64,000 nt of DNA from the IMG/VR virus record IMGVR_UViG_3300031669_000021, positions 1 through 64,000 of that record; one strand, 5' to 3'. Below the pieces are notes generated by a model. That model was not told the origin of the DNA and made no database searches. It was given only the letters and a program-made list of their open reading frames with translations. A program made the translations under genes and the position numbers. The DNA is from a virus. Each line of letters starts with the position of its first letter. Positions within the stretch are counted from its first letter, which is position 1. Below, in pieces: positions 1 to 24,888 of the stretch.

Positions 1-64
1 TCTTAAGACTCGCGCAAGCAAGATCGCACACGAGTAATCTACGCTCGTTCTGAGCAAAATACTT

Positions 65-95
65 AAACCCTGGGTTCCCGGGGTTTTTGTTTGAG
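65..95 (+). terminator. possible rho-independent terminator
   Basis: AAACCC(65-70) / GGGTTT(81-86) stem followed by TTTTGTTTG; upstream gene lies outside window. Confidence 0.3.
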
Positions 96-108
96 TTGAA
101 GAAATCGC

Positions 109-136
109 TTGACATTTCGGTTAAAGACTGTATAAT
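109..136 (+). promoter_or_regulatory. sigma70-type early promoter, cassette copy
   Basis: TTGACA 109-114, 16-nt spacer, TG-TATAAT 129-136; conserved TTTCGG spacer and ATAGCTCTATGCAGTAAACAAACGAGAG leader. Confidence 0.6.
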
Positions 137-170
137 AGCTCTATGCAGTAAACAAACGAGAGAATTAAAA

Positions 171-782
171 GTGTCCACTCCTGATAACATCAGCAATGAA
201 GAATTAATTGATGTACTAAAGACTATTTGTGTCACAGATGGAGATGGCAACAGGCATTGGTATCTAAATAATCAATTACACAGAGTTGATGGACCAGCAA
301 TTGAATATGCAGATGGCAACAGGCATTGGAATCTGAATAGCAAACGACATCGCGTTGATGGACCAGCAATTGAACATGCAGATGGCGCAAAGGAGTGGTT
401 TCTAAATGGTCAACGACATCGCGTTGATGGACCAGCAATTGAGATGGCAGATGGCAACAAGAGTTGGTATCTAAATGGTCAACGACACAGAGTTGATGGA
501 CCAGCAATTGAGATGGCAGATGGCAGCAAATGTTGGTATCTAAATGGTCAACTACACAGGGTTGATGGACCAGCAATTGAGATGGCAGATGGCGCAAAGC
601 ATTGGTATCTAAATGGTCAACGACACAGAGTTGATGGACCAGCAATTGAAGATGCAGATGGCAGCAAATGTTGGTATCTAAATGGTCAACTACACAGGGT
701 TGATGGACCAGCAATTGAGATGGCAGATGGCACAAAAGAATGGTGGTTGAATGGCATATTACATCACAGAGGAAGAATTTAA
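171..782 (+). CDS. MORN-like repeat protein (approx 8 x 23-aa DGPAIEYADGxKxWYLNGQxHRV repeats)
   Basis: Track ORF 87-782 contains the promoter, so start moved to in-frame GTG 171 at the position where ATG sits in other cassette copies; near-perfect 69-nt periodic repeats. Confidence 0.55.
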   Translation: MSTPDNISNEELIDVLKTICVTDGDGNRHWYLNNQLHRVDGPAIEYADGNRHWNLNSKRHRVDGPAIEHADGAKEWFLNGQRHRVDGPAIEMADGNKSWYLNGQRHRVDGPAIEMADGSKCWYLNGQLHRVDGPAIEMADGAKHWYLNGQRHRVDGPAIEDADGSKCWYLNGQLHRVDGPAIEMADGTKEWWLNGILHHRGRI

Positions 783-818
783 CAATAAGTCATTGATTCC
801 ATAGAGAAGAGATTCTTC

Positions 819-846
819 TTGACATTTCGGATAAAGAATGTATAAT
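819..846 (+). promoter_or_regulatory. sigma70-type early promoter, cassette copy
   Basis: TTGACATTTCGG..TG-TATAATAGCG, 16-nt spacer. Confidence 0.6.
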
Positions 847-878
847 AGCGTCATAAAGTTAATAAAGAGACACAGTAA

Positions 879-1076
879 ATGTCAACACAAACAAACAAAA
901 TGCTCGAAGAATATTCCGAGCTGCATAACGGCAGCATGACAGTTGGCGAAAGGTTCACCAACGAGGGTCAGGCAAAACTTGACAGAGAAGTTGAGCTTCT
1001 CGAAAGTCTTGCTGCAAAATACGAAATGTCGGGATTTGATTTCGTTGCAAAATTTGAAAGAGGAGAAATAAAATGA
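879..1076 (+). CDS. hypothetical protein 65 aa
   Basis: ORF placed right after cassette leader; stop overlaps next start (ATGA). Confidence 0.5.
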   Translation: MSTQTNKMLEEYSELHNGSMTVGERFTNEGQAKLDREVELLESLAAKYEMSGFDFVAKFERGEIK

Positions 1077-1201
1077 TCAACTTTATTCTTGGTGCCATTC
1101 TCGGTTTTGTGATTGCAACCGTGGGTTTTGGCAACATCACACACTCACTTGACAGTCAAGTAGCAAGCGCACAGCATTATCTCAAAGCCAACATCAAGTA
1201 A
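1073..1201 (+). CDS. small hydrophobic protein 42 aa (MINFILGAILGFVIATVGF..)
   Basis: ATG 1073 overlapping previous TGA; one TM segment; below the 60-aa track cutoff. Confidence 0.35.
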   Translation: MINFILGAILGFVIATVGFGNITHSLDSQVASAQHYLKANIK

Positions 1202-1240
1202 GTCATTGATTTCACTGTGACGAAATAGTTGAGAAAGTTC

Positions 1241-1268
1241 TTGACTTTTCGGTTAAAAAGCGTATAAT
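1241..1268 (+). promoter_or_regulatory. sigma70-type early promoter, cassette copy
   Basis: TTGACT 1241-1246, 16 nt, TATAAT 1263-1268; same TTTCGGTTAAA..GCGTATAATAGCT context. Confidence 0.6.
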
Positions 1269-1303
1269 AGCTTCATACAGTTAATAAACGGAGAGCAAAA
1301 CAA

Positions 1304-1717
1304 ATGGCAACGATCACAAAATCCAATATCGCGCAACATCGTAAGGAAATTGAATCCACTCTGAAAGCACTTTCTGCCAAAACTGGCATCGACTTCAACA
1401 TCGGGCGCATCACATACAATGCTGACTCGTTGCGTTGCAAACTCGAAGGAACAGTTCGCGGCGCCGCAGGAACTTCCAAGACCACCGTCGCTGATCCGCA
1501 TCTCGTCTCACTGCTGAAAAATGCCAGCTGGGCATTGCCCGCTGGATTCGATCAGACCAAGTCTTACAGCTCGCAGCAACTGGGAACAGTCAAAATCGTT
1601 GGCTACAACAGCCGCGCCCGTTCTTACCCGTTCATCGTTCAAGCCAAAAATGGCAAAAAATACAAAGTTGCAAGTTTCGGCGCCCGCATGATGGTCGAAG
1701 CCGGCGCAGTCGCATAA
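1304..1717 (+). CDS. hypothetical protein 137 aa
   Basis: ORF after cassette leader (..ACGGAGAGCAAAACAA ATG). Confidence 0.55.
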   Translation: MATITKSNIAQHRKEIESTLKALSAKTGIDFNIGRITYNADSLRCKLEGTVRGAAGTSKTTVADPHLVSLLKNASWALPAGFDQTKSYSSQQLGTVKIVGYNSRARSYPFIVQAKNGKKYKVASFGARMMVEAGAVA

Positions 1718-1872
1718 TGGATATAAAAGTTTACTTGGCGCTCGTGCAAAAAGCAATCGCCGACAGAACATTTGACTGGCCTGACGGCACTGTCCAGCAA
1801 ATTGATGACGAAAAGATGGAATTTTTGCTTACACTTGAAGCAGAACTGCTAAAAAAATTATCGGAGAAATGA
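1717..1872 (+). CDS. hypothetical protein 51 aa
   Basis: TAATG overlap with previous gene; TGA 1870-1872 abuts next ATG 1874. Confidence 0.35.
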   Translation: MDIKVYLALVQKAIADRTFDWPDGTVQQIDDEKMEFLLTLEAELLKKLSEK

Positions 1873-1873
1873 A

Positions 1874-2191
1874 ATGTATTCAATGTTAGAGAAACTTGCA
1901 GACATGACGGACAAGATGGCCAACACCGACTTCTCCGCGGCGCCAAACATGAAATGTGCCCAAGCACTGATTGACACACTTGTTGACCAAGAAGGTTTTG
2001 GTCCAGCACTTGCGCGAAAAATCGTTCTCCGTATGAAAATTGACGTATCTGACTTCGACTTGTCAAATGCTCACTGGCAAAGAATCGTCAGCAATTATGC
2101 CACCATAATCAACAAGTTATACACAATTTCTGAAGACAATGACACGATGCTTGCGATTGCATCTACGCTGACACTGAGTTACGAGGAATAA
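1874..2191 (+). CDS. hypothetical protein 105 aa
   Basis: track ORF, tightly packed. Confidence 0.5.
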   Translation: MYSMLEKLADMTDKMANTDFSAAPNMKCAQALIDTLVDQEGFGPALARKIVLRMKIDVSDFDLSNAHWQRIVSNYATIINKLYTISEDNDTMLAIASTLTLSYEE

Positions 2192-2192
2192 G

Positions 2193-2324
2193 ATGAAAGA
2201 AGATAAAGAAGAATCAAAGATGAATTTTTGGGGATGGGCGCATCTACATCCGGTCGCACTTGTCGTAATCGTATATCTCGTTGGAATGACAGTCGCCAGC
2301 GTAATCAGGAGTCTCACTCACTAA
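2193..2324 (+). CDS. small membrane protein 43 aa
   Basis: ATG 2193; C-terminal TM HLHPVALVVIVYLVGMTVASVI. Confidence 0.35.
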   Translation: MKEDKEESKMNFWGWAHLHPVALVVIVYLVGMTVASVIRSLTH

Positions 2325-2325
2325 C

Positions 2326-2481
2326 ATGACATTTTTTCTTGGCTTCGGCATTTTCTTAATCGCATTCAATCTTGTTATGATTTATCTCGATTATCGTCGA
2401 GGTTCATCGACGACCTGGTGGGGATATATCAGTTTATGGTGCGGCATCTTCCTTGTTGTGTCAGAACTCTTCTTCAAATAA
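2326..2481 (+). CDS. small membrane protein 51 aa
   Basis: ATG 2326; two hydrophobic segments (FFLGFGIFLIAFNLVMIYL, YISLWCGIFLVV). Confidence 0.35.
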   Translation: MTFFLGFGIFLIAFNLVMIYLDYRRGSSTTWWGYISLWCGIFLVVSELFFK

Positions 2482-2662
2482 AGGAATAAATCATGCACAT
2501 GTTTTTGCCGGACTTGGCGGAGCGTTAGTTGGTAGCGGCATCACACTGCTAATTCTGGAGCGTATATTCGCACCTAAAACACAATTCACTCTATTTCCGA
2601 TGCCACAATTTGTCATGATATTTGCCGGCATATTCTTCATATTTTTAAGTTACAATGTCTAA
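2453..2662 (+). CDS. small membrane protein 69 aa
   Basis: track ORF; hydrophobic; overlaps previous small ORF by 29 nt. Confidence 0.35.
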   Translation: MLCQNSSSNKGINHAHVFAGLGGALVGSGITLLILERIFAPKTQFTLFPMPQFVMIFAGIFFIFLSYNV

Positions 2663-2834
2663 TGGCGAAATAACGCCAGAGGAACTTATTGAAGTCCTGA
2701 AAAATGGTCGCTGTAGGTGCGGCGCTGTTGGGAGAGAACTGCACGACTGCCCTTTCCAAGTAGATAACTTTGCCTTCCCAGAGCCCTGCAACTGCTGTGA
2801 AAAGTGCCAAAAACACTGTTGGAACGAGGCGTAA
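2655..2834 (+). CDS. Cys-rich small protein 59 aa (CRCG..HDCP..CNCCEKCQKHC)
   Basis: ATG 2655 to TAA 2832-2834; 9 Cys in 59 aa; missed by track. Confidence 0.4.
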   Translation: MSNGEITPEELIEVLKNGRCRCGAVGRELHDCPFQVDNFAFPEPCNCCEKCQKHCWNEA

Positions 2835-2847
2835 GAGCAGATTTCAC

Positions 2848-2875
2848 TTGACATTTCGGCAAAAGAGCGTATAAT
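2848..2875 (+). promoter_or_regulatory. sigma70-type early promoter, cassette copy
   Basis: TTGACA 2848-2853, 16 nt, TATAAT 2870-2875; leader ATAGCTCTATACAGTAAACAAACGGAAC. Confidence 0.6.
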
Positions 2876-2906
2876 AGCTCTATACAGTAAACAAACGGAA
2901 CAAAGA

Positions 2907-3308
2907 ATGTCAATTCAATTTTCCCATCCAAAAGTAGGCAGCAAAGTTAAAGTCACATACAAAGTGAATGATATCTACTTGTATGCCAAAAGCCCAATCG
3001 CACACGAGTGGGTAGAGGGAACTGTTCTCCCAAATCAAAAATTTACTAACCCAAATGCGTTTGTTCTTCGCGTAAATTGCCAATATGCGCCAATTCGAGA
3101 ATTCAACTTGGATGGACTCGTTGATCTTGAGTATCTGGACGGCAGCGTCGCAGCAAAAAACGAAGTCGACAATGAAGTAAAGGTTCTTGAAGTAACTGGC
3201 AGCAAAGGTGAAAAATATACAGTGGTCAAGCAAGGTGCAAAGGCAACATGCACTTGCGTCGGATTTCAGTTTCGCAGAACCTGCAAGCATCTGGAGATGG
3301 TAAAATGA
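2907..3308 (+). CDS. SWIM zinc-finger protein 133 aa
   Basis: C-terminal CTCVGFQFRRTCKH fits the CxCxnCxH SWIM pattern. Confidence 0.5.
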   Translation: MSIQFSHPKVGSKVKVTYKVNDIYLYAKSPIAHEWVEGTVLPNQKFTNPNAFVLRVNCQYAPIREFNLDGLVDLEYLDGSVAAKNEVDNEVKVLEVTGSKGEKYTVVKQGAKATCTCVGFQFRRTCKHLEMVK

Positions 3309-3546
3309 ACGAGAAAATCGCCGCACGATGTGCTCGGCAATCAATTAAAGAACTCTTTGGAGTAAAATAGTGCGCGGCAAAAGAGCAAGTTATAATTGTC
3401 TGTATTGCCACAAGTTATTCTCGGCGCGTATCGCAGATCGCGCGGGGATGGGCACAATTCTGTAACAAACGATGCAAGGCAAAAAAACAAGAACGAGATA
3501 GGAAGTTGATTACAATTTTAAAATCAAACTACACAGGAATAAGATT

Positions 3547-3711
3547 ATGAGCAAAGAATATGACATCACCGTAAAAATTCGAATCACTGTCGATGATGAG
3601 AACTCGTTCGAAGAGGCACAGGCAGTTGCCAATCATTACGCAAGTATGTCGCAGAGTTATAAAAGCGTCAGCGCCGACAAAATTATCCGGGTTGATGTGG
3701 AGGAAGTTTGA
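3547..3711 (+). CDS. hypothetical acidic protein 54 aa
   Basis: ATG 3547, TGA 3709-3711 overlapping next ATG 3711. Confidence 0.35.
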   Translation: MSKEYDITVKIRITVDDENSFEEAQAVANHYASMSQSYKSVSADKIIRVDVEEV

Positions 3712-4007
3712 TGAACAAAAGACTTGCAGATCTTGAGGCAGCGGCGTATGTTGAAGAAATTCAATATGAAGAAGTTTCCTCTCAGCCGCCGCGCGAATAC
3801 CAAGCAAAAGTTTTTAGTCGAGAAAAATTTGCAGAATTGATCGTGAGAGAAACTCTTGATTTGCTACAGAAAGAGTGGTATAGTCTGAACAATGCGCCAA
3901 AATTTGAAGACGGCGAGAGTCCTCGTGATGTTGGGATTCGTGTTGGTAGGAAAAGCGAGATCATTTCTCTTATAGCAGAAATAAACAAACACTTTGGAGT
4001 AGAGTAA
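3711..4007 (+). CDS. hypothetical protein, member of FAELIV(R/Q)E paralog trio
   Basis: EKFAELIVRETLDLLQKEWY resembles KFAELIVQECMNVYE of 4457-4765. Confidence 0.5.
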   Translation: MNKRLADLEAAAYVEEIQYEEVSSQPPREYQAKVFSREKFAELIVRETLDLLQKEWYSLNNAPKFEDGESPRDVGIRVGRKSEIISLIAEINKHFGVE

Positions 4008-4268
4008 GTGATCAGAACATTTAAGACCGGGACGAGTAGAGAAACCACAGGCGAGAAGAGAGTGACGGCCTACTTCGTTACCGACGCACACAATTCAGAC
4101 GAAATTAAGCATCGGCCCGAAGCAGTAACATTCCCCGTGAGTCAAGTGTATGACCAGGATATGCAATTTCGACGAGCAGACGATTACTGCAACTATCTCA
4201 ACAAATTGGCAGAGGCGGCACAAGAAGCATACGAACAAAACCAACTAATCAATGTATTGAAGGCATAA
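4008..4268 (+). CDS. hypothetical protein 86 aa (GTG start)
   Basis: track ORF; GTG directly after previous TAA. Confidence 0.4.
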   Translation: MIRTFKTGTSRETTGEKRVTAYFVTDAHNSDEIKHRPEAVTFPVSQVYDQDMQFRRADDYCNYLNKLAEAAQEAYEQNQLINVLKA

Positions 4269-4269
4269 A

Positions 4270-4455
4270 ATGAACAAGAAAATAAAAAAGATCGCAAAGA
4301 AATGTAATTTTACTGAGCAAGACATTGAAGACATGTCTCCTGGATTTGAGATGTTTGCAAAGATGATTGTTCTTGAATGCGCTAAAGTCGCCGATAAAAA
4401 GATGTATCCGGAACGGGTCGGGGATGAAATCAAAGAACATTTTGGATTAAAATAA
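4270..4455 (+). CDS. hypothetical protein, paralog trio member
   Basis: MNKKIKKIAKKCNF..MIVLECAKV; same N-terminus as next gene. Confidence 0.5.
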   Translation: MNKKIKKIAKKCNFTEQDIEDMSPGFEMFAKMIVLECAKVADKKMYPERVGDEIKEHFGLK

Positions 4456-4456
4456 A

Positions 4457-4765
4457 ATGAACAAGAAAATAAAAGAACTTCTTAAAGAAGCAAAAGCAGA
4501 ATCGTTTTATGCTTTTGCTGACGAACAACTGACACAGAGCATGGAACCAAAAGGTGCATTAGTAGTTGCCGAAAAGGATGGCCCAGGAAAAGGTCCTCAA
4601 CCTAACGGGCATTGCACTGAACTACAAAAAATTGATCTGAGGAAATTCGCAGAACTAATTGTGCAAGAATGTATGAACGTTTATGAAGCAATTGATAATG
4701 GTAATGCAGTAGAGGGAAGCAAGGATTTCCCCATTGCATTACATAGACGATTCATGGAGAAATAA
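4457..4765 (+). CDS. hypothetical protein, paralog trio member
   Basis: MNKKIKELLKEAK.. and FAELIVQECMNVYEAID shared with neighbours. Confidence 0.5.
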   Translation: MNKKIKELLKEAKAESFYAFADEQLTQSMEPKGALVVAEKDGPGKGPQPNGHCTELQKIDLRKFAELIVQECMNVYEAIDNGNAVEGSKDFPIALHRRFMEK

Positions 4766-4766
4766 T

Positions 4767-4991
4767 ATGAAACTGTATTACGACGCAGACAACGGCGGAC
4801 GAGAGGACTGGAGCGTATTCTATTGCACACCTGAAATTTTCTTAGATCCGAAGATCCGAGCAGAAAGAAAGAAGTTTGTGAAGTCAAAATGTCCAGAACT
4901 CAAGTTTCATGAAGTAGACATTAAAACTTCGGATACACACGATTTCGCAGTTGAATATTGCGAAATCGACGAGGAAAACGACGATGCTTAA
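4767..4991 (+). CDS. hypothetical protein 74 aa
   Basis: ATG 4767 two nt after previous TAA; track ORF started earlier at a non-ATG. Confidence 0.45.
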   Translation: MKLYYDADNGGREDWSVFYCTPEIFLDPKIRAERKKFVKSKCPELKFHEVDIKTSDTHDFAVEYCEIDEENDDA

Positions 4992-5352
4992 ATTTTTGCA
5001 GTTTATACAATGGTGTGGTAGGAAAATTTATGGAGGCTTAGTATCAGCGATTCTTAGCATCCCGAAAGGGATAGCCACTGTATTTCATGTGCTTAAACAC
5101 GAAGTAAGACACGCAACATTCCTGTTCAGTTTACTCTGGGCAATGTTTACCGCGTTTCTTTTGCTCGTGTCACTGGGAATTTCTGCCAGCATCGCACTTT
5201 GGTTCTCAATTAAGCATACGCCGTTCGTGACAATTACTGAGGTAGTGATTAGCATAAGCATCGTTTTATATGCAACACTGGTTGTCGGTATGATCTACGA
5301 TATGTTTGAAGAAGAGCAAGAACAGCTAATGGATATTTTGAAGAAAAAATAA
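4984..5352 (+). CDS. membrane protein approx 122 aa
   Basis: ATG 4984 overlapping previous stop; two to three TM segments. Confidence 0.45.
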   Translation: MLKFLQFIQWCGRKIYGGLVSAILSIPKGIATVFHVLKHEVRHATFLFSLLWAMFTAFLLLVSLGISASIALWFSIKHTPFVTITEVVISISIVLYATLVVGMIYDMFEEEQEQLMDILKKK

Positions 5353-5353
5353 T

Positions 5354-5650
5354 ATGTATTTCTATATCTTTAGTCGACCTGAAAAGATTGTGTTTCTGCC
5401 AAAGGCGCCAAGCATTGGCGCGCAGATAACGCAGGTTGCAACAGCAATTATCTCGTATCACCCAAAAGGCGAGCAGTTCAGGATAATAAAGAATCGTTAC
5501 GGAACGCCCATCAACGAAATAGCAGAAAAATACCTCGGAATACGCTTGTTTAATGACGGATTCTTCATTTCTGACCAAGAAAAGATGCTTTTTATCTTGA
5601 AATACAGTGGCTTACAACACGAGAAAGATCTTGACATCCCTATCATATGA
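5354..5650 (+). CDS. hypothetical protein 98 aa
   Basis: track ORF; its 3' end carries the next promoter. Confidence 0.45.
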   Translation: MYFYIFSRPEKIVFLPKAPSIGAQITQVATAIISYHPKGEQFRIIKNRYGTPINEIAEKYLGIRLFNDGFFISDQEKMLFILKYSGLQHEKDLDIPII

Positions 5651-5659
5651 GCGTATAAT
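5631..5659 (+). promoter_or_regulatory. sigma70-type early promoter
   Basis: TTGACA 5631-5636, 17 nt, TATAAT 5654-5659. Confidence 0.55.
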
Positions 5660-5688
5660 GCTTGTATTAACTTAAAGAAAGCAAACAA

Positions 5689-6939
5689 ATGTCCGTATTA
5701 TCTATCCTGAATGAAATCGCCGCAAACTCAAGCACAAAAGCAAAAGAAGCAATCATCTTGCGCGAAAAAGACAATGCTGATTTACGCGCCACATTCGCCG
5801 CGGCGTATGACCCCACAATTTCGTATTACATCCGCAAGATTCCAGAGCCAATAAATCCGGGAATCAAAACAACTCTGGACAAAGCAATTTTAATGTTATC
5901 GGGTCTGTCTTCAAGAAAGCATACAGGCGCCGACGGAATTACATTTTTGGCTACGACACTTGGTGCAGTAAGCAAAGATGATGCAACAGTTATCGAGAGA
6001 ATCATTGACCGCGATTTGCGATGTGGCTGTTCTGATTCAATTGCGAGCAGAGTGTGGCCAGGTTTGGTCCCAACATTTGATGTGATGCTCAGCCACAAAG
6101 ATATTTCCGGCATCAAATTCCCCGCTTACGCACAAATCAAATCAGATGGTGCTCGTTGTCATATGATGTTGCGTGATGGTGTTGCAATGGCTTTTTCTCG
6201 CAACGGAAAACCAATTGAATTGCACAGCACATTCGATGAATTACTGTCAAACATAATCAATGAAGGCGAAACACTGGACGGCGAATTGCTTGCAGTTGGC
6301 AAAGATGGCAAAATTCTCGATCGTCAAACAGGAAACGGCATAGTCAATAAAGCAGTAAAAGGCACAATCAGCAAAGAAGAAGCCGAAATGCTCGTGTTTG
6401 CAACTTGGGACATAGTTGATTTCTCTTCGACAATCCCCTACAGTAAGCGGATTGAGCGTTTGACAAAAGCGGTGCCTGCTGGCCATAAAATTCATGTGTT
6501 GCAAACTCATATAGTCAATAATAAAGATGAAGCACAAGTATTTTTTGAGCAGTGTCTGTCAGATGGGCAAGAAGGAGCGATGATCAAGAATATGAATGCA
6601 GTATGGGTTCCGAAACGCACCAAAGATCTCGGCAAAATGAAAGCAGAAGAAGTTGCAGATTTAGTTATTGTCGGAATCGAAGAAGGTGCTGGCAAATATA
6701 CTGGAATGGTTGGTGCGTATGTTTGTGAGACTTCTGATGGCAAGTTGCGTGTCAATGTTGGCTCTGGTTTTTCTGATGATGAACGAGCAAACGAATTGCC
6801 ACTTGGCACAGTTATCGAAGTGATGTATAATCAAAAAATCCAAGATAAGAATGGTGGCAAAGCATCATTGTTCTTGCCACGGTTCTTGAGTGTGCGCTTT
6901 GATAAAGATATTGCAAATACATTTGAGGAATTAAAATAA
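5689..6939 (+). CDS. ATP-dependent DNA ligase (T4 gp30-like)
   Basis: Motif I IKSDGARC (KxDGxR), EGAMIK motif, 416 aa; nucleotidyltransferase superfamily. Confidence 0.8.
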   Translation: MSVLSILNEIAANSSTKAKEAIILREKDNADLRATFAAAYDPTISYYIRKIPEPINPGIKTTLDKAILMLSGLSSRKHTGADGITFLATTLGAVSKDDATVIERIIDRDLRCGCSDSIASRVWPGLVPTFDVMLSHKDISGIKFPAYAQIKSDGARCHMMLRDGVAMAFSRNGKPIELHSTFDELLSNIINEGETLDGELLAVGKDGKILDRQTGNGIVNKAVKGTISKEEAEMLVFATWDIVDFSSTIPYSKRIERLTKAVPAGHKIHVLQTHIVNNKDEAQVFFEQCLSDGQEGAMIKNMNAVWVPKRTKDLGKMKAEEVADLVIVGIEEGAGKYTGMVGAYVCETSDGKLRVNVGSGFSDDERANELPLGTVIEVMYNQKIQDKNGGKASLFLPRFLSVRFDKDIANTFEELK

Positions 6940-7661
6940 TCAAAGAATTTAGACCAACTTATCTTTATATCAAACGGCATTCAATTACTGGGCTATTATA
7001 TTTTGGTAAGACTATAAGAAAAAATCCTGAGAGATATTGTGGTTCTGGGAACCATTGGAAGAAACATATAAAGAAACACGGAAAAGAATACGTAGAAACT
7101 CTTTGGTATTGTTTGTTTTATGACAAAGAAGAATGCACAGGATTTGCTCTTGCTTTTTCAGAACAACAAGATATCGTTGAATCAGAATTATGGGCAAATC
7201 AGATAACTGAGAATGGACTTGATGAACGAACAGGAACAAAACACTCATTGAAAAATCGACAACGATTTTCTGAACAGAGATTAGAATACTATAAACACAA
7301 TGATCATCCCAGAGGCATGTTAGATAAACAACATTCTACTAAAACCAAGAAACATTATTCGGAGACACGAAAAGGCTCAAATAATGGAATGTTCAATAAA
7401 AATCATTCCGATGAAACTAAACAACATTGGTCGGAGATTCGAAAAGGCAAAAATTGCGGCGAGAATAATCCAAATTACGGAAATCACGTTTCCGAAGAAC
7501 TAAAGTTAGCATCCTCTGCCAGAAATAAAAATATGGTCTCGGCTTTTGATAAGATCGAAAAGAAAAATGCTCAAATATCAAAAGAAGAATTTGAGGGAAA
7601 TAAGAAAATTAGATATGTCGGTATCGCATCAAAAGAAGCAAAGCAATTAAGAATAACATAA
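6939..7661 (+). CDS. GIY-YIG homing endonuclease (Seg-like) with NUMOD3 repeats; no canonical start codon
   Basis: Frame open from 6927: TYLYIKRHSITGLYYFGKT..R..H..HG..E..N GIY-YIG core, then 4 x HSxETKxxxS NUMOD3-like motifs; no ATG/GTG/TTG before the GIY motif. Confidence 0.6.
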   Translation: MKEFRPTYLYIKRHSITGLLYFGKTIRKNPERYCGSGNHWKKHIKKHGKEYVETLWYCLFYDKEECTGFALAFSEQQDIVESELWANQITENGLDERTGTKHSLKNRQRFSEQRLEYYKHNDHPRGMLDKQHSTKTKKHYSETRKGSNNGMFNKNHSDETKQHWSEIRKGKNCGENNPNYGNHVSEELKLASSARNKNMVSAFDKIEKKNAQISKEEFEGNKKIRYVGIASKEAKQLRIT

Positions 7662-7670
7662 GGATATAAT

Positions 7671-7940
7671 ATGACCACACCACAAGATACATTTGATGCA
7701 TTGGCAAGTCAGCTAACAGAAAAAGAAGTAATTGAGTTGCTCGTTGATAACGCAACAATGCTCTTAAATTACGATGACGCAAACCCCGACGTAGGAATGG
7801 GATTATTCATTTTCCAGGCAGTTGATAGGGCAGCCGACGACATTCGTGAAGAGGCTCTTCGATGGCGCAGAACTGTTTATATATCTGACTCAGCAAAAGC
7901 AGAGGCAGAAAAAATAATTGGGAAGAACCGCAGGAGATAA
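7671..7940 (+). CDS. hypothetical protein 89 aa
   Basis: track ORF. Confidence 0.45.
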   Translation: MTTPQDTFDALASQLTEKEVIELLVDNATMLLNYDDANPDVGMGLFIFQAVDRAADDIREEALRWRRTVYISDSAKAEAEKIIGKNRRR

Positions 7941-7941
7941 T

Positions 7942-8151
7942 ATGGAAGCAAAAGAAGCAGACATAGTAATCAACGGCGTAAAACTAACATTTGCTCAGTC
8001 AATGACACTGAGAGTGGCAATGTCCTCGTTTAGGTCAGAGATGTCTGAGGAAGATGCTCTGGGGAACGATGAGCATGGCAAATTTATGGCAGAAGCATAC
8101 GCAAAACGATCTGATGAAATAATTGAATTAATTTTTAGGAATCTAAAATGA
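7942..8151 (+). CDS. hypothetical protein 69 aa
   Basis: ATG 7942 after SD AGGAGA; stop overlaps next start. Confidence 0.45.
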   Translation: MEAKEADIVINGVKLTFAQSMTLRVAMSSFRSEMSEEDALGNDEHGKFMAEAYAKRSDEIIELIFRNLK

Positions 8152-13738: not shown

Positions 13739-14189
13739 AAATGTTCCTGCAATAGCCATACCAACAGCAGATCACTTTGCTGCTGGCGAGAATTCTATGC
13801 TGATTCAGATCATGGATACTTGTTCTTCTTGGTGGCCTGAACCAAAACACAAGTTCAAAGAAGTCTACAAGTTTGAATTCTTAGATATTGGTGACGATGC
13901 GGGTGAGCTAGAAGAATTTGGTTGCACTGAAGAACAAGCAGTGGCATTGGTTGAACTTCTCAAACGCGCACAGGAAAATCGTATGCAGGTTGTCGTTCAT
14001 TGTCACGCAGGAATCTGCCGCAGCGGAGCCGTTGTGGAAGTTGCAGAGATGATGGGATTCACTCCTGTGGAGAGATATCGCCTGCCTAACTCTCGAGTAA
14101 AAAGATTGATGATGCGTGAATTAGGTCTTACATACGATTCAACTAACGATATCTATTCTCAAATTGAGAGGCGACTAAATTACTTCTAA
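13719..14189 (+). CDS. dual-specificity (Cys-based) protein phosphatase
   Basis: Catalytic P-loop VVHCHAGICRSG = HCxAGxxRSG. Confidence 0.7.
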   Translation: MMTLWIENVPAIAIPTADHFAAGENSMLIQIMDTCSSWWPEPKHKFKEVYKFEFLDIGDDAGELEEFGCTEEQAVALVELLKRAQENRMQVVVHCHAGICRSGAVVEVAEMMGFTPVERYRLPNSRVKRLMMRELGLTYDSTNDIYSQIERRLNYF

Positions 14190-14190
14190 A

Positions 14191-14394
14191 ATGAACCCAG
14201 ACCAAAAGAAAGTTTGGGACATTCTTGAGGGTGGTAAGATCTGGACCGCCAAAGTTGAAGTAGATCCAAACAATCCTGAAGAATGTATTCTCGTCTTCCC
14301 TCCAGATTTATTAGAACGTGCCGGGTGGGAAGAGGGAGACATAATCATGTGCTCAATACTCCCAGAAGGTCGAATTATATTAAGCAAACAATAA
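14191..14394 (+). CDS. hypothetical protein 67 aa
   Basis: track ORF, followed by terminator hairpin. Confidence 0.45.
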   Translation: MNPDQKKVWDILEGGKIWTAKVEVDPNNPEECILVFPPDLLERAGWEEGDIIMCSILPEGRIILSKQ

Positions 14395-14435
14395 AGAAAC
14401 CAACATCTTTTAAATGTTGGTTTCTTTATTTTGTA
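14391..14435. terminator. bidirectional rho-independent terminator
   Basis: 16-bp perfect hairpin ATAAAGAAACCAACAT / ATGTTGGTTTCTTTAT with 7-nt loop, T-run on both strands; sits between convergent genes. Confidence 0.6.
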
Positions 14436-14566
14436 ACAGCCGTTTACCTAATTCTGGATCCATTGATTTTGCAATGGCAATCCACCTTGCTAATGCTAAT
14501 CGGTCAATTATTTCTGGCGGTAGCGGTGGTTCATTGCTGCCATTCTCTGACCATCTCTTTACCTTC

Positions 14567-14767
14567 TTAAGCTTTAGTCTTTGCTGCGACTGGTGCAGCA
14601 GGTGCTTTCGGTGATGCTTTCGATGCTTTTTTGGCTTTTTTGGAGTGACTTTTAGAATGTTTTGCTGGGGCCTTTACTACTGTCTTTGTTGCAACAGCGG
14701 ATTCAGCTGCAAAAGCGGTTGAAGATAATGCAAAAACGGCAATAAGTGCGAGTGTTAATTTTTTCAT
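14567..14767 (-). CDS. secreted Lys/Ala-rich small protein 66 aa
   Basis: Signal peptide MKKLTLALIAVFALSSTAFAAE, then KHSKSHSKKAKKASKASPKAPAAP; SD AAGGAAA; one of few minus-strand genes. Confidence 0.45.
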   Translation of the reverse strand: MKKLTLALIAVFALSSTAFAAESAVATKTVVKAPAKHSKSHSKKAKKASKASPKAPAAPVAAKTKA

Positions 14768-14916
14768 TTTTGGTTTCCTTTAAGTTATGTAGAACATTTA
14801 ATCTACATACTAATAACGTTTGTGGAGCCCATAATGAGGACAAGATTTTTACTATTTTTTAACCGAATAAATAGTAGTTCAGAAACGCTGGCGCATAAAT
14901 AAGTGTAGGAGAGAAA

Positions 14917-15774
14917 ATGTTCTATTACTTATACGAAATAAAAAATAACATAACCGGTAAAATTTATGTAGGTGTTCATAAAACTAATAACATAGATGAT
15001 GGGTATATGGGATCAGGGACAATTATTAACCGAGCTACCAAGAAATACGGCATTGAAAATTTTACAAAAACTATTCTTGAATGGTTTGAGGATTCAACTA
15101 ACATGTATTTAAGAGAAGCAGAAGTAATAAATTCTGAATTCTTATTGCGTAAAGATGTGTATAATATTAAACTTGGCGGAAAAGGTGGATTTGATTATAT
15201 AAACAAAAATAACCTTGGATGGGGAGAGAACAATAAAAGAAGAGTAGAACAAAGCGAAAGAATGGCCTATCGTCATACTTCATCAGAAAATAAAGAAGTA
15301 TGGAATTTGATTAGACAAAAAAGATGGAATAAGCCCGAAGCTAAAGAAAAACACTCTAGGCAAATAAAAGAAAACTGGAAGAACATTGAATGGGCAGCAA
15401 AAGATATAGCAAAAAAGAAAGAAGTAGGTAACAGACCAGAAATTAGAGAGATGCGACGCAAGAACAGTTTAGAAATGTGGCAACGGCCAGAATATCAAAA
15501 AAAGCATAAAGCTGCAATGGCTAAAGTTACTTCTAATCCAACTTGGTTAGAAAATAATCGACAAAACGGAATCAAAAATTGGAAGGATCAGACCAAGCGC
15601 GAAAATATGATGAAAAATAGACCAGCAATGACTGTTGCACAGAGAGAAGAACAGGCAAAAAGAACAACCGAAATTAACAAAAAATCTTGGTCTGATCCTG
15701 CCTCAAGAGAGAAAAGAATAGAAGCAATCCGAGCAGGACAGTTAGCATATTGGGCTAAGAAGAGAAACGGTTAA
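14917..15774 (+). CDS. GIY-YIG homing endonuclease (Seg-like)
   Basis: YYLYEIKNNITGKIYVGVHKT...R..H GIY-YIG core; AT-rich; Lys-rich C-terminus with NUMOD-like repeats; SD AGGAGAG. Confidence 0.7.
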   Translation: MFYYLYEIKNNITGKIYVGVHKTNNIDDGYMGSGTIINRATKKYGIENFTKTILEWFEDSTNMYLREAEVINSEFLLRKDVYNIKLGGKGGFDYINKNNLGWGENNKRRVEQSERMAYRHTSSENKEVWNLIRQKRWNKPEAKEKHSRQIKENWKNIEWAAKDIAKKKEVGNRPEIREMRRKNSLEMWQRPEYQKKHKAAMAKVTSNPTWLENNRQNGIKNWKDQTKRENMMKNRPAMTVAQREEQAKRTTEINKKSWSDPASREKRIEAIRAGQLAYWAKKRNG

Positions 15775-15852
15775 AATAGATTTGATTTTTCACATAAGAT
15801 TCTGTTATTGTTTTACTATGTGTTTTATTACACAACTATAGGAGAAGTAAAT

Positions 15853-16086
15853 ATGAAAGTAACAAATCAGAATCAATTTTTAGTTGAGTATCTTCGTGGA
15901 ACAGGTCGCGAGTTAACAGTAGCTCAGGCAAGAGCAAGATTTGCAGTGGGAAATCTTCGTGCTCGCATTGCAGAACTTCGCAAGGCAGGATTAAATGTCA
16001 AGAGCCGCAAGAATTACAGAAACGCGGCAGCCTACCAGATCCCAGTTCGTCTTCAAGATGGATCGCGTCGTAAAGTAAGTCTATAA
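15853..16086 (+). CDS. HTH DNA-binding protein (HTH_39-like)
   Basis: ELTVAQARARFAVGNLRARIAELRKAGLNV fits the helix-turn-helix ..RLAARIxELR.. family; ATG 15853 after SD AGGAGA. Confidence 0.5.
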   Translation: MKVTNQNQFLVEYLRGTGRELTVAQARARFAVGNLRARIAELRKAGLNVKSRKNYRNAAAYQIPVRLQDGSRRKVSL

Positions 16087-16107
16087 TATCAGCGCAATAC
16101 TGTGATA

Positions 16108-16134
16108 AAATAGGGGCTGAAGCCCCTATTTTAT
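16108..16134 (+). terminator. rho-independent terminator
   Basis: AAATAGGGGC-TGAA-GCCCCTATTT hairpin plus TAT. Confidence 0.55.
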
Positions 16135-16146
16135 GCGAGAAACAGC

Positions 16147-16174
16147 TTGACTTTCTCGCCAAATAGTGTATAAT
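16147..16174 (+). promoter_or_regulatory. sigma70-type early promoter, cassette variant
   Basis: TTGACT 16147-16152, 16 nt, TG-TATAAT 16167-16174. Confidence 0.55.
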
Positions 16175-19036: not shown

Positions 19037-19064
19037 TTGACTTTCTCCTCATTTAGTGTATAAT
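19037..19064 (+). promoter_or_regulatory. sigma70-type early promoter, cassette variant
   Basis: TTGACT 19037-19042, 16 nt, TG-TATAAT 19057-19064. Confidence 0.55.
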
Positions 19065-19087: not shown

Positions 19088-19366
19088 ATGGAAAATCACA
19101 AGAGATATTTTATCCACAGGACCAACAGTGATGGTTCTCTTGAATATCGATATCAGACCGGAGAGTGGCGCGATGATTTTAAGGACGCGCAGTTATGGGC
19201 CAGCAAAGAATTTGCAATTAAGAAAGCAAAAGAGTTGAAGAAAAGCGACCTTAACTGGCAGAAAGATTCAGAATTCTGCGGACCATACACTGGGCCTAAA
19301 TTGACCGGCATGTATGTCGGTGAAGTAACAGTAACATATAACGATCAAGATTGGGAAGAAGTATGA
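19088..19366 (+). CDS. hypothetical protein 92 aa
   Basis: track ORF; stop overlaps pnk start. Confidence 0.5.
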   Translation: MENHKRYFIHRTNSDGSLEYRYQTGEWRDDFKDAQLWASKEFAIKKAKELKKSDLNWQKDSEFCGPYTGPKLTGMYVGEVTVTYNDQDWEEV

Positions 19367-20265
19367 ACAAAGCAATAATCACAGTAGGAATTTCAGCATC
19401 AGGCAAGTCAACCTTTGCGGATGAGTGGCTTAACGCAGGGCCTAATCGCGTCCGCATCGAGCGAGATCTTGTGCGTAAGGCACTGGTCGAAGCCGACGGG
19501 AAAGAATGGTCTTGGGACAAATGGAACTGGAAAAGAGAAAGCGAAGTTACTGCCATCATCAATCGCAGAATCGAAGCATGTGCAGGATCACATGACATCA
19601 TCCTGTCAGATACCAATCTGCACACTGGTCGTCGTAATACTCTTGTCAAGTGGCTTGAGTCTCTTGGCTACGAAGTCGAAGTGAAAATGTTTCCCGTATC
19701 AATCGAGGAAGCATGGAAGCGTGATGCAAAACGCGCAAATGGCGTAGGACATTCTGTCATTGCAAAACAATACGAGCAAAATCTCGAAAACAGCACACGA
19801 CGTCGTTATGTAGCTGACCCAAATAAACCAGCCTGCATCTTGGTTGATATCGACGGAACACTTGCTCATATGAACGGTAAGCGCGGTGCATTTGAATGGG
19901 AGAAGGTTGGTCTTGATGTCGTCGACGAGGCAGTTCGAGCTATTGTCAATCGCTTTGCATTCCGTGATGATGGTAGCACAGAAACAGACACCGTAGTTAT
20001 TGCACTCTCTGGGCGTGACGGTATTTGCGAGCCAGAAACACGGCAGTGGTTAAAGGACAACGATGTTGGATTCCACAAACTTTTTATGCGAGCACCAAAC
20101 GATATGCGAAAAGATACAATCGTCAAGGAAGAAATCTTCTGGCGAGATATTGCAGACAACTACAGTGTTCTGTTCGCTATCGACGACCGCCCAAGTGTTG
20201 CAAGAATGTGGCGTGAATTGGGAGTAAAAGTATTTCAAGTTGGCAATCCTCACATTGAATTTTAA
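19363..20265 (+). CDS. pseT: polynucleotide 5'-kinase / 3'-phosphatase (T4 Pnkp)
   Basis: N-terminal P-loop GISASGKST and ISDTNL; C-terminal HAD phosphatase VDIDGTLAHMNGKRG, RKDTIVKEEIFW, AIDDRPSV..MWRELGV; co-linear with T4 PseT. Confidence 0.85.
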   Translation: MNKAIITVGISASGKSTFADEWLNAGPNRVRIERDLVRKALVEADGKEWSWDKWNWKRESEVTAIINRRIEACAGSHDIILSDTNLHTGRRNTLVKWLESLGYEVEVKMFPVSIEEAWKRDAKRANGVGHSVIAKQYEQNLENSTRRRYVADPNKPACILVDIDGTLAHMNGKRGAFEWEKVGLDVVDEAVRAIVNRFAFRDDGSTETDTVVIALSGRDGICEPETRQWLKDNDVGFHKLFMRAPNDMRKDTIVKEEIFWRDIADNYSVLFAIDDRPSVARMWRELGVKVFQVGNPHIEF

Positions 20266-21990: not shown

Positions 21991-22188
21991 GGAGAGCAAA
22001 TGATTCGTTACCCGCAAGACATGGTTGAGCTTCGATATCTTAAAGTTAAGAAAAACAATCCCTGGCACAAACCAGAACCCAAACTTCAATACCGAATCAA
22101 GAACGTTAGCATTGTTGATTATACAGAAACTTGGTCAGAGTGGAGAGATGTGCCTACAGTGGATTTGGCAGACGAAGATGATGACTAA
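21976..22188 (+). CDS. hypothetical protein 70 aa
   Basis: track ORF. Confidence 0.45.
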   Translation: MVLFIGEQMIRYPQDMVELRYLKVKKNNPWHKPEPKLQYRIKNVSIVDYTETWSEWRDVPTVDLADEDDD

Positions 22189-22384
22189 AGAATTTACTGT
22201 TAGAATTCCAGCATCAAATTTGAGCAAAGTATATAATAGCTTGGGTTTTGTGGCCTATTCGTGGTGCAAGACAAACTGTACAGGGAAGTTTGATTTCGGC
22301 CAAAACATTCCTGAAATAGATATATTTGTGGCTAATTTTGAAAACGAAGAAGATGCCACGCTATTCGCGTTGGTGTGGGCATAA
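22181..22384 (+). CDS. paralog array member A1 (..WCKTNCTGKFDF..FENEEDATLFALVWA)
   Basis: ATG 22181 overlapping previous stop; shared C-terminal module. Confidence 0.5.
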   Translation: MTKEFTVRIPASNLSKVYNSLGFVAYSWCKTNCTGKFDFGQNIPEIDIFVANFENEEDATLFALVWA

Positions 22385-22596
22385 TGCAAACAATCGTACG
22401 GGTTAGTGATCCGTCAATGGACAAAATAAAAGAGATGGATGAGTTTATTGCATCATCCGAGTTAAAACTCATTAAAAAAGAATATACAGATGTAAGTGAT
22501 TTCAGTATATCTGTTGACGAAATATTTTCTTTTACCTTTGGCAACGAAGAAGATGCAACGTTATTTCAACTAAGATTTGTAGGAAGCAATGGCTGA
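22384..22596 (+). CDS. paralog array member A2 (..FGNEEDATLFQLRF)
   Basis: ATG 22384 (TAATG overlap); shared C-terminal module. Confidence 0.5.
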   Translation: MQTIVRVSDPSMDKIKEMDEFIASSELKLIKKEYTDVSDFSISVDEIFSFTFGNEEDATLFQLRFVGSNG

Positions 22597-22942
22597 CCTA
22601 AAATATGTTGCTGGATCTATTTGGCGTAGTCTATTTAATAGAAAATTTTCTCTTGCTGACAATAAGAACGTAAATACTAATGCCACCACAGTCAAAACAT
22701 TTTATAAGGGATTTACTCACATCATTGCCTGGGACGATACTCAATGGTATATGAATAAATTGCCTAAAGCAAGCGATTGGTGCGACAAAAATTGTAAAGG
22801 AACTTACTTCTCGCAGATTCACTGTGTCTACTTTGAAGATAGAATAAACGATTGGGTAATCGACGAGTTAAAAGGCAAGGATTTTTGTTTTTGGGTATTT
22901 GAAAATGAAGAAGATGCAATTATGTTTTCATTAAAGTGGTAA
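22589..22942 (+). CDS. paralog array member A3 (..WCDKNCKGTYF..FENEEDAIMFSLKW)
   Basis: track ORF; SD AGGAAG. Confidence 0.55.
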   Translation: MADLKYVAGSIWRSLFNRKFSLADNKNVNTNATTVKTFYKGFTHIIAWDDTQWYMNKLPKASDWCDKNCKGTYFSQIHCVYFEDRINDWVIDELKGKDFCFWVFENEEDAIMFSLKW

Positions 22943-22943
22943 T

Positions 22944-24811: not shown

Positions 24812-24833
24812 TAATCAATAACTTAGAAAGTCC

Positions 24834-24861
24834 TTGACTTTTCGGTAGAAGAGCGTATAAT
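24834..24861 (+). promoter_or_regulatory. sigma70-type early promoter, cassette copy
   Basis: TTGACT 24834-24839, 16 nt, TATAAT 24856-24861, TTTCGG spacer. Confidence 0.6.
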
Positions 24862-24888
24862 AGTTACATTACTTAAAGAGAGACTCAG

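Follow-up and report, generated by a model that had tools for sequence, protein, structure and literature searches.

Recurrent promoter-and-leader cassettes before unrelated genes in a jumbo phage distantly related to PA5oct

Units of nearly the same sequence, each with a promoter and a 5′ leader, recur before unrelated genes in this phage DNA. Are they mobile modules, promoters that look alike by chance, or standard expression signals kept similar by selection? We addressed this question in the window, i.e., the whole 64,000-nt (64 kb) stretch analyzed. A preliminary description had proposed seven near-identical and six divergent copies of a mobile cassette similar to the PeSL (promoter-early stem-loop) elements. 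By its gene content, the window is part of a jumbo phage whose nearest cultured relative, though a distant one, is Pseudomonas phage PA5oct (family Arenbergviridae): the clamp loader is 58% identical to that of PA5oct, and synteny extends over the ligase, Cpn10, clamp loader, PhoH, DnaJ, and ClpA genes. Megablast comparison of window positions 1–8000 with 50,697 phage records gave no match. When genome contigs were scanned for the cassette pattern, most matches were in gut Clostridia MAGs; these are unrelated to this phage and provide no host clue.

A core family of six cassettes

Six cassettes, all on the plus strand (109, 819, 1241, 2848, 24834, and 46627), constitute the core family. Their −35 and −10 hexamers are near-consensus, with 11 or 12 of 12 positions matched in every copy, and form a perfect TTGAC(A/T)-N16-TATAAT. 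To the 17 bits of information in the hexamers, the remaining positions add ~49 bits, located in the spacer (TTTCGG), the discriminator (AGC), and the 5′ leader. The core copies, a partial seventh copy, and an adjacent hairpin are as follows.

65–86, plus strand: intrinsic-terminator-like hairpin directly 5′ of cassette 1 (9-bp stem, T run; fold of the upstream 60 nt, z = −2.4)
109–170, plus strand: cassette 1; TTGACA-N16-TATAAT at 109–136, AGC, and a leader with SD GAGAG, up to GTG 171 of a MORN-like repeat gene
786–878, plus strand: cassette 2; IHF-consensus site TAAGTCATTGATT at 786–798, promoter at 819–846, leader to ATG 879
1199–1303, plus strand: cassette 3; IHF-consensus site at 1199–1211, promoter at 1241–1268, leader to ATG 1304
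2848–2906, plus strand: cassette 4; promoter at 2848–2875, leader to ATG 2907, no IHF-like site
24800–24888, plus strand: cassette 5; IHF-consensus site in the opposite orientation at 24813–24825, promoter at 24834–24861, leader to ATG 24889
30093–30153, plus strand: partial seventh copy; CCCTTGACATTTCGG, 17-nt spacer, TGn-TATAAT, different leader, ATG 30154
46576–46686, plus strand: cassette 6; hairpin at 46576–46607 with an IHF-consensus site at 46584–46596 in its loop, promoter at 46627–46654, leader to ATG 46687

From its 5′ side, a cassette consists of an upstream IHF-consensus site (in some copies), GA(G/A)AAA...C just before the −35 box, CTTGAC(A/T), a 16-nt spacer that opens with TTTCGG and closes with G, TATAAT followed by AGC, and a 23- to 35-nt unstructured A-rich leader (..TCATACAGTTAATAAAGAGAG..) that holds the SD and ends at a start codon. 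The SD and start codon (ATG/GTG) are located at the 3′ edge of the unit in all seven copies with TTTCGG. The cassettes are intergenic and strand-biased to the coding strand; the −35 box of cassette 4 begins 13 nt past the upstream stop codon. Four copies lie within the first 2.9 kb, among small ORFs mostly without Pfam hits, while other copies in the 64 kb covered front unknown ORFs or, at 24834, an L7/L12-CTD-like ORF and RNA ligase. Nearly the same ~70- to 110-base unit, composed of a probable IHF site, a near-perfect host-type promoter, and a standard leader, fronts at least six unrelated gene groups.

The CTTGACATTTCGGWTAAAGAGCG 23-mer, with up to three mismatches allowed, was found six times in the window, and a −10-plus-leader pattern was found five times, compared to 0.00 expected matches for each. 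Outside the hexamers, pairwise identity among cassettes was 53 to 91%, compared to 26 ± 7% for random window pairs, and leave-one-out non-hexamer PWM scores of the core copies ranged from +19 to +60 bits, compared to −76 ± 15 for the background. The core copies are thus far more alike than the −35/−10 consensus alone predicts. This bears out the preliminary description on two points, the extension of conservation past the hexamers into the spacer, discriminator, and leader and the likeness of the copies beyond a shared consensus. Its set of seven near-identical units holds for six: the seventh starts at 30093 (position 30092 is a C) and keeps TTTCGG, but has a 17-nt spacer and does not share the leader.

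In a scan of the window for perfect TTGAC(A/T)-N16-18-TATAAT, 10 sites were found on the plus strand (109, 819, 1241, 2848, 5631, 16147, 19037, 24834, 30093, and 46627) and none on the minus strand. The six sites previously regarded as divergent but clearly related copies (5631, 16147, 19037, 27054, 53122, and 58584) are near-consensus sigma-70-type promoters whose non-hexamer likeness to the core is weak (z = 1.9 to 3.7):

5631–5659, plus strand: consensus sigma-70-type promoter overlapping the 3′ end of ORF 5354–5650, upstream of DNA ligase (ATG 5689); not a cassette copy
16105–16174, plus strand: terminator hairpin at 16105–16134 (z = −4.6) and class-B promoter at 16147–16174 (TTGACTTTCTC...TAGTGTATAAT)
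19037–19064, plus strand: class-B promoter upstream of a 92-aa ORF and polynucleotide kinase-phosphatase
27054–27082, plus strand: CCCTTGACA-N17-TATATT with TGn; no leader or SD at cassette distance
53122–53150, plus strand: TTGACT-N17-CATAAT whose −10 box ends 5 nt before the DnaJ ATG 53156, allowing a leaderless transcript at best; no SD at cassette distance
58584–58612, plus strand: CCCTTGACA-N17-TATAGT promoter, 11 nt upstream of tRNA(CUA) 58624–58701

CCCTTGACA was found only at 27054, 30093, and 58584. Separate promoter classes (A, B, and CCC-type) front different gene sets. The earlier statement that each copy precedes either the tRNA or a small ORF of no recognizable function does not apply to 5631 (DNA ligase), 53122 (DnaJ homolog), 24834 (see above), or 19037, where the small ORF is accompanied by polynucleotide kinase-phosphatase.

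An extended −10 (TGn) is present only at 27054 and 30093 of the 13 sites checked and absent at 109, 819, 1241, 2848, 5631, 16147, 19037, 24834, 46627, 53122, and 58584; class-A copies have no proper TGn. TTTCGG combined with a −10 box without a −35 box, as expected of MotA-box-like use, is absent from the window. Since folding gave no structure in the cassette leaders (z ≥ −0.5), a riboswitch or attenuator reading was dropped. At gathering thresholds, Rfam returned no RNA family for the leader, the tRNA being the sole match. Some copies contain a partial palindrome around the −10 box (AGAGC-G-TATAATA-GCTCT at 2848; ATGCT...AGCAT in the sister-phage locus L002), which is inconsistent across copies.

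IHF-like sites, conservation, and recombination

The IHF consensus WATCAANNNNTTR, as used in PMC8942017 and PMC9452768, is matched 10 times in the window; four of these matches (786, 1199, 24813, and 46584) lie no more than 120 nt upstream of one of the 13 promoters (p = 7e-5). The sister loci contain 19 matches, of which 9 lie no more than 110 nt upstream of one of 18 promoters (p = 5e-9). Measured from the edge nearest the promoter, the sites are 8 to 30 nt upstream of the −35 box, except for a single sister-phage site 58 nt away. Such a site, in either orientation, is present in about a third to half of cassette copies, and three of the seven core copies (counting 30093) lack it. The occurrence of both orientations argues for a DNA-level role. 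These matches are probable, predicted IHF sites and suggest that IHF may be recruited at many early promoters of these phages.

The cassette is carried by several related phages, and the sharers co-occur in the same metagenomes. Cassette 5 and its ortholog L277 have 86 consecutive invariant nucleotides (24800–24885), while the flanks are 79.5% identical (p about 3e-9). Identity between cassettes and their sister-phage copies is 80 to 92% (80 to 87% over 80 to 117 nt for cassette 3 against L002 and L027; 92% over 64 nt for cassette 6 against L037). The retrieved portions of the sister contigs yielded few homologous proteins, and these are 27 to 62% identical. Cassettes are as similar between genomes (0.544) as within them (0.551), and the similarity of two spacers does not predict that of their leaders (Mantel r = 0.11, p = 0.21). 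Together, the invariant ortholog, the equal similarities, and the lack of a spacer-leader correlation show that the cassette, whatever its origin, is under purifying selection over its whole length. They also make the proposed alternative of duplication rather than convergent evolution a false choice. Two other accounts were rejected: a genealogy of whole-unit duplications, since spacer and leader similarities are uncorrelated, and concerted evolution, i.e., genome-specific homogenization, since similarity is the same within and between genomes.

In 50 kb of the syntenic PA5oct region, sigma-70-type sites have no common spacer or leader sequence, which argues that the extended motif is clade-specific. 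Of the loci retrieved by DNA-ligase homology, the closest two (66 and 63% identity) have no cassette within 10 kb on either side and are unusable for synteny.

Mobility was assessed from folds, strain-level indels, and sister phages. An upstream stem-loop is significant at 3 of the 13 sites (109, z = −2.4; 16147, z = −4.6; 46627, z = −3.1); at the other 10, z lies between −0.6 and +1.4. The eight strain-level indels of the window lineage comprise repeat-number changes, homing-endonuclease genes, paralog-array recombination, and a single plain deletion, and none has a cassette at both ends. The 819, 1241, and 2848 cassettes are collinear in all strain contigs, and the longest exact tract common to two window copies is 9 to 20 nt. 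Five events in sister phages include one two-sided chimera and one one-sided case. In the former, the L035 promoter takes its upstream half from L237 cassette 1 and its downstream half from L237 cassette 2, the crossover lying in GTATAATAGTT; the two tandem L237 cassettes flank a 52-aa ORF where L035 has the single chimeric promoter. In the one-sided case, the end of the L227/L002 replacement falls within a cassette: upstream of the −10 box the two copies differ at 7 of 16 spacer positions, and downstream of it they are 98% identical. By our estimate, about 3 of 26 breakpoints fall in cassettes, compared to roughly 0.6 expected. The L035 chimera thus suggests that cassettes sometimes serve as recombination junctions.

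Parallels in other phages

The cassette is a genuine variation on a theme already known from phages rather than an element of a new type. Lambda pL and Mu Pe are IHF-assisted sigma-70 phage promoters, with a WATCAANNNNTTR site a few helical turns upstream at which IHF bending stimulates transcription. The cassettes similarly place a WATCAANNNNTTR site upstream of a strong, here putative, early promoter; unlike in lambda and Mu, the sites are predicted from sequence and positional enrichment, have both orientations, and occur at many promoters of a lytic jumbo phage. The T4 early −35 box is GTTTAC-like, whereas that of the cassettes is the canonical TTGACA. The cassettes further differ from T4 early promoters in the lack of TGn in class-A copies, in having an IHF-like site, and in the position of the extra conservation, which covers TTTCGG at the beginning of the spacer and the transcribed leader, not an A-tract UP element. 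T4 early promoters are “über” UP/−35/TGn/−10 promoters with additional consensus regions (Hinton 2010, PMC2988021); they depend on host sigma-70 and are thought to out-compete host promoters (PMC2988021). Both sets combine excellent −35 and −10 boxes with extra consensus beyond known RNA polymerase elements, in many copies of one long consensus.

PeSL cassettes are known from T4-like phages (Arbiol et al. 2010, PMC2839356; Comeau et al. 2014, PMC4122927). Like them, the units described here are conserved intergenic elements with a near-consensus sigma-70 promoter, SD, and ATG before unrelated small ORFs, with homology that stops at gene boundaries. The sister-phage crossover at the −10 box between tandem cassettes also falls in the zone of mapped PeSL mini-circle junctions. 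Unlike PeSL elements, most copies (10 of 13 sites) have no terminator stem-loop, the defining PeSL feature, and an IHF-consensus site takes the corresponding upstream position; the virus is a PA5oct relative rather than T4-like; and most strain-level indels are not cassette-bounded. The PeSL-like label fits in part: the promoter and the SD/start-codon edge agree with it, and the stem-loop at most sites does not. For PA5oct, rifampicin-sensitive transcription and 32 TTGAC/TATAATA promoters at transcription start sites have been reported (Lood et al. 2020, PMC7318152). Its RNA-seq-defined starts with TTGAC and TATAATA boxes, dependence on host RNA polymerase, and syntenic replication/chaperone region parallel the window, whereas the extended cassette is not among its features.

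Function and competing readings

We consider it likely that the cassettes are strong, probably early, promoters of the jumbo phage for host sigma-70 RNA polymerase, built as a standard expression cassette. Host polymerase would initiate about 7 nt past TATAAT, IHF may bend the upstream DNA and boost initiation, and the common leader would provide uniform, efficient translation. TTTCGG and the leader may hold extra information for polymerase or for a clade-specific factor: sigma-70 function alone fails to explain the extended conservation, since PA5oct promoters work without these elements. We know of no RNA polymerase contact with TTTCGG (about −29 to −24) or the 20-nt leader core. Strong conservation at such spacer and leader positions is a testable pointer to a hitherto unrecognized layer of early-gene control. 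Being dispersed repeats placed exactly at gene boundaries, cassettes could also act as occasional homologous-recombination junctions through which small ORFs are added, removed, or swapped, as a side effect rather than their main role. The notion of regulatory cassettes as recombination junctions would thereby reach beyond T4-like phages, with a minority of strain-level indels explained in this way.

Independent convergence on the −35/−10 consensus, or chance, fits the six formerly “divergent” sites with their weak non-hexamer likeness; for the core family it is refuted by the match counts, the 49 non-hexamer bits, and the pairwise identities, and as a general account it is extremely improbable. 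PeSL-type mobility, in which the main significance of the cassettes would be excision, insertion, and swapping of cassette-plus-ORF units, possibly via mini-circles, with similarity kept by duplication or exchange, is also unlikely. The same cassette does front unrelated ORFs within and between genomes, with homology ending at the ATG, and the cluster of four copies among small ORFs, the L035 chimera, the L227/L002 replacement, and the breakpoint excess point the same way. Against it stand the rarity of the stem-loop, the indels without cassette borders, the collinear cassettes, the short exact tracts, the lack of a spacer-leader correlation or of higher within-genome similarity, and the invariant ortholog, which indicates selection rather than turnover.

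The conservation not attributable to polymerase (TTTCGG, −10 flanks, and leader) may tentatively be read as the target of a hypothetical clade-specific phage-encoded factor, such as a repressor shutting off early transcription, a sigma-appropriation-type activator around −30, or a regulator that, like T4 RegA/RegB, binds or cleaves early mRNAs. This reading can hold together with the expression-cassette explanation, to which it would add a mechanism. Strong purifying selection at positions without known sigma-70 contact, the absence of the motif from PA5oct promoters and hence its clade specificity, its presence in phages from the same metagenomes, and the use of distinct promoter classes before different gene sets favor such a factor; variable spacer positions, several leader subtypes, and a palindrome in only some copies argue against one rigid operator. 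Still more doubtful is the combined reading of an ~100-nt portable cassette (architectural-protein site, promoter, TTTCGG box, and standard 5′ UTR) that is specific to an environmental jumbo-phage clade, read by a dedicated phage factor at TTTCGG or the leader, and exchanged between co-infecting phages. If true, it would account for the high cassette identity despite the low protein identity and for the lack of the cassette in the closest DNA-ligase relatives.

With the expression-cassette model, promoters and 5′ UTRs of an uncultured jumbo-phage clade can be annotated directly, and at least two gene starts can be fixed. The hairpin at 65–86 and the promoter at 109–136 fall within the long-ORF reading of gene 87–782, and homology of the paralog 46966–47628 to this gene starts only at residue 27 of the long ORF; GTG 171, as proposed earlier, is therefore the most likely start on sequence evidence. 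The second is ATG 46723, the ancestral start of ORF 46687–46926.

The extended promoter family and its anatomy

Pattern scanning of the window revealed 10 perfect TTGAC(A/T)-N16-18-TATAAT sites, all of them on the plus strand and none on the minus strand. Six form a tight family, at positions 109, 819, 1241, 2848, 24834, and 46627. With 0.00 matches expected in either case, the window contains six matches to the 23-mer CTTGACATTTCGGWTAAAGAGCG (up to three mismatches allowed) and five to the −10-plus-leader pattern TATAATAGCTYNATACAGTWAAYAAA. The information held by the six core copies amounts to 17 bits in the hexamers and 49 bits at the other aligned positions. Pairwise identity outside the hexamers is 53 to 91%, compared to 26 ± 7% in random window pairs, and leave-one-out scoring outside the hexamers gives the copies +19 to +60 bits and the background −76 ± 15. 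Thus, as the preliminary description proposed, the core copies are more alike than the −35/−10 consensus alone predicts, and the contrary view is clearly refuted.

The wider family of 13 copies held up only in part. The seventh copy, at 30093, shares CTTGACATTTCGG with the core, but its spacer is 17 nt long and its leader is different. The remaining six (5631, 16147, 19037, 27054, 53122, and 58584) are good sigma-70–type sites whose extra similarity to the core family is nevertheless weak (z = 1.9 to 3.7); no leader or Shine-Dalgarno sequence (SD) was found at cassette distance for 27054 and 53122. Four sites (5631, 53122, 24834, and 19037) contradict the claim that every copy precedes the tRNA or an ORF of unknown function.

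Order of cassette elements, 5′ to 3′ on the plus strand, read from the aligned copies
GA(G/A)AAA..C, upstream element
TTGAC(A/T), −35 hexamer
Spacer: TTTCGG, six variable bases (consensus TTAAAG), A, two variable bases, and G
TATAAT, −10 hexamer
AGC
Leader: (T/A)TCATACAG, then TTAATAAA, GAGAG, and 6 to 10 nt
ATG, start codon

Transcription would start at the conserved A ~7 nt past the −10, in which case the leader is 23 to 35 nt long; it is A-rich and, as judged by folding, without structure. Some copies have complementary bases on either side of the −10, as in AGAGC-G-TATAATA-GCTCT (window 2864–2885) and ATGCT-G-TATAAT-AGCAT (the minus-strand cassette at 4441 of the sister phage locus L002), and this complementarity is inconsistent from copy to copy.

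The exact sequence TAAGTCATTGATT is present upstream of 819, 1241, and 46627. Its reverse complement, AATCAATGACTTA, fits the IHF consensus WATCAANNNNTTR, taken from published use (PMC8942017, PMC9452768). A fourth consensus match, in reversed orientation, lies directly upstream of 24834. Of the 10 matches in the window, four lie upstream of one of the 13 promoters at a distance of no more than 120 nt (0.24 expected, p = 7e-5); the sister loci contain 19 matches, of which 9 lie no more than 110 nt upstream of one of 18 perfect promoters (p = 5e-9). Since the site occurs in both orientations, its four central N positions differ among copies, and its promoter-proximal edge lies 8 to 30 nt from the −35 (58 nt at one sister phage site), it fits a putative architectural site acting at the DNA level.

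Conservation among relatives and the proposed role

When IMG/VR and JGI metagenomes were scanned for the cassette pattern, many contigs bearing it were recovered. Most belong to the study that yielded the strain variants of the window (Ga0307375, Ga0307376, and Ga0307377), and some were sampled elsewhere. On two large sister contigs, of 92.6 and 178 kb, there are many copies whose −35, TTTCGG, −10, AGC, leader, and IHF-like site are those of the window cassettes. DNA similarity between the window and the sister loci is almost wholly in the cassettes (80 to 92% over 64 to 117 nt); beyond these, blastn matched just two coding segments of ~200 nt, 69 to 70% identical, and detectable protein homologues are few (27 to 62% identical). 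Cassette similarity is 0.551 within genomes and 0.544 between them. Leader similarity is not predicted by spacer similarity (Mantel r = 0.11, p = 0.21). At the locus orthologous to 24834 in L277, a relative ~80% identical, 86 consecutive positions (24800–24885), from the IHF-like site through the SD, are invariant, against 79.5% identity in the coding DNA on either side (p about 3e-9). Taken together, the confinement of similarity to cassettes, its near equality within and between genomes, the Mantel result, and the 86-nt invariance show that stabilizing selection acts over the entire cassette; a recent duplication genealogy does not emerge from them. Outside of these phages, at least 120 bacterial genome contigs (L095–L214) match TTGACWTTTCGG-N9-GTATAAT; most among the matches listed are gut Clostridia/Oscillospiraceae MAGs, which suggests an unrelated conserved element or coding motif.

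The window codes for DNA ligase, RNA ligase, polynucleotide kinase-phosphatase, a clamp loader, two Cpn10 homologues, and DnaJ-, ClpA-, and PhoH-like proteins. The clamp loader and its counterpart in Pseudomonas jumbo phage PA5oct share 58% identity, and gene order is syntenic. In PA5oct, which relies on the polymerase of its host, 32 TTGAC/TATAATA promoters lie at transcript starts (PMC7318152). In 50 kb of the syntenic region, however, PA5oct sigma-70–type sites have no common spacer or leader. Therefore, the extended cassette is not required for sigma-70 promoter function and is specific to a narrower clade.

On the best-supported reading, the cassettes would form a family of strong promoters for the host polymerase, probably early in action, to which a probable IHF site and a standard leader for translation initiation are joined. 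Such packaging would provide uniform high expression of small, rapidly turning-over genes. We know of no RNA polymerase contact that explains the conservation of TTTCGG or of the leader core, and this conservation may mark a clade-specific, phage-encoded factor. The cassette itself is real and is kin to extended-consensus phage early promoters or to cassettes resembling promoter-early stem-loop (PeSL) elements, both already known. In this uncultured PA5oct relative, it is unusually strongly conserved, and evidence for cassette-mediated shuffling is limited.

Cassettes and recombination

PeSLs of T4-like phages consist of a terminator stem-loop immediately upstream of a strong sigma-70–like early promoter, with the SD and ATG at the 3′ edge; they are enriched in hyperplastic regions and found at indel boundaries between close relatives (PMC2839356, PMC4122927). 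The window cassettes have an IHF-like module where PeSLs have the stem-loop, and an upstream hairpin is present at only 3 of the 13 sites. Comparison with strain-variant contigs revealed eight structural differences, none of which is bounded by two cassettes.

Structural differences between the window and strain variants 92 to 99% identical to it
MORN-like gene: number of 69-nt repeats varies
3312/3344: ORF present or absent, bounded by conserved ends of a small paralog family
44516–45304: NUMOD3 homing-endonuclease–like ORF
14183–15868: region with a weak GIY-YIG ORF
22173–23127: two events inside a paralog array
Second MORN paralog: lost
Immediately past cassette 46627: deletion of 366 nt in the window, by which five codons of one ORF became joined to another ORF's tail

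Among the sister phages (Ga0307375_10000155 and Ga0307375_10000041), cassettes are involved in two of five events. In L237, two tandem cassettes surround a 52-aa ORF; L035 has at that place a single promoter, whose upstream half corresponds to cassette 1 of L237 and whose downstream half corresponds to cassette 2; the crossover lies in GTATAATAGTT, which the two cassettes have in common. In the L227/L002 replacement, an endpoint lies inside a cassette. Hence, cassettes act occasionally as recombination junctions, as PeSLs do, and this is a minority process in this sample.

Gene starts, variable loci, and the tRNA

The proposed move of the first gene's start to GTG 171 is likely correct, since TTG 87 lies between a terminator (65–86) and the −35, transcription is predicted to begin near 143, and the paralog 46966–47628 aligns with the long first ORF from residue 27 only. 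The proteins encoded by 171–782 and 46966–47628 are 76% identical and contain 23-aa (69-nt) MORN-like repeats, whose number varies among strain contigs L082, L083, L088, L091, L215, and L248; strain variant L275 is devoid of the second paralog. ORF 46687–46926 is a deletion fusion: in L275 and L215, two additional ORFs (63 and 66 aa) separate codon 5 (MKAYG) from the sequence immediately ahead of ATG 46723. This ATG was probably the original start of the gene that remains.

Members of a small-ORF family at 3305–4765 have conserved ends (start MNKKIK..., end ...IKEHFG(V/L)K-stop, junction GGAGTAAAATA(A/G)TG). One of them, 3305–3369, is a 21-codon remnant, and L084 and L272 are ~400 nt longer at this point; recombination points here are gene ends, not promoters. 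The homing-endonuclease–like ORFs 14917–15774 (weak GIY-YIG) and 44516–45304 (NUMOD3) are missing or replaced in variants L278 and L275, which would fit mobile endonuclease genes. At 22025–23127, small paralogous ORFs form an array and have a 47-nt repeat in common (22319, 22519, and 22880); L278 lacks two segments of the array, and ORF 22944–23120 has several homologues in a sister phage (L002, L010, and L037).

ORF 24889–25296, with a ribosomal L7/L12 C-terminal domain (Pfam E = 1.7e-8), adjoins a T4 Rnl1-type RNA ligase (25351–26538), and the polynucleotide kinase-phosphatase (19351–20265) is located 5 kb upstream of this pair. Ligase and kinase-phosphatase together resemble a tRNA-repair set, beside which lies an unusual homologue of a ribosomal protein. 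The tRNA at 58624–58701 has a CUA anticodon (amber suppressor type; labeled Pyl by ARAGORN) and an encoded CCA end, and forms its own small transcription unit (promoter 58584–58612, terminator 58881–58909). Since TAG terminates 11 of 110 long plus-strand reading frames, the window gives no hint that TAG has been recoded wholesale. Tandem repeats of 114 nt (80% identical, 33286–33513) and 156 nt (94% identical, 34237–34548) are found in the tail-fibre–like genes 33019–33993 and 33995–35197, respectively.
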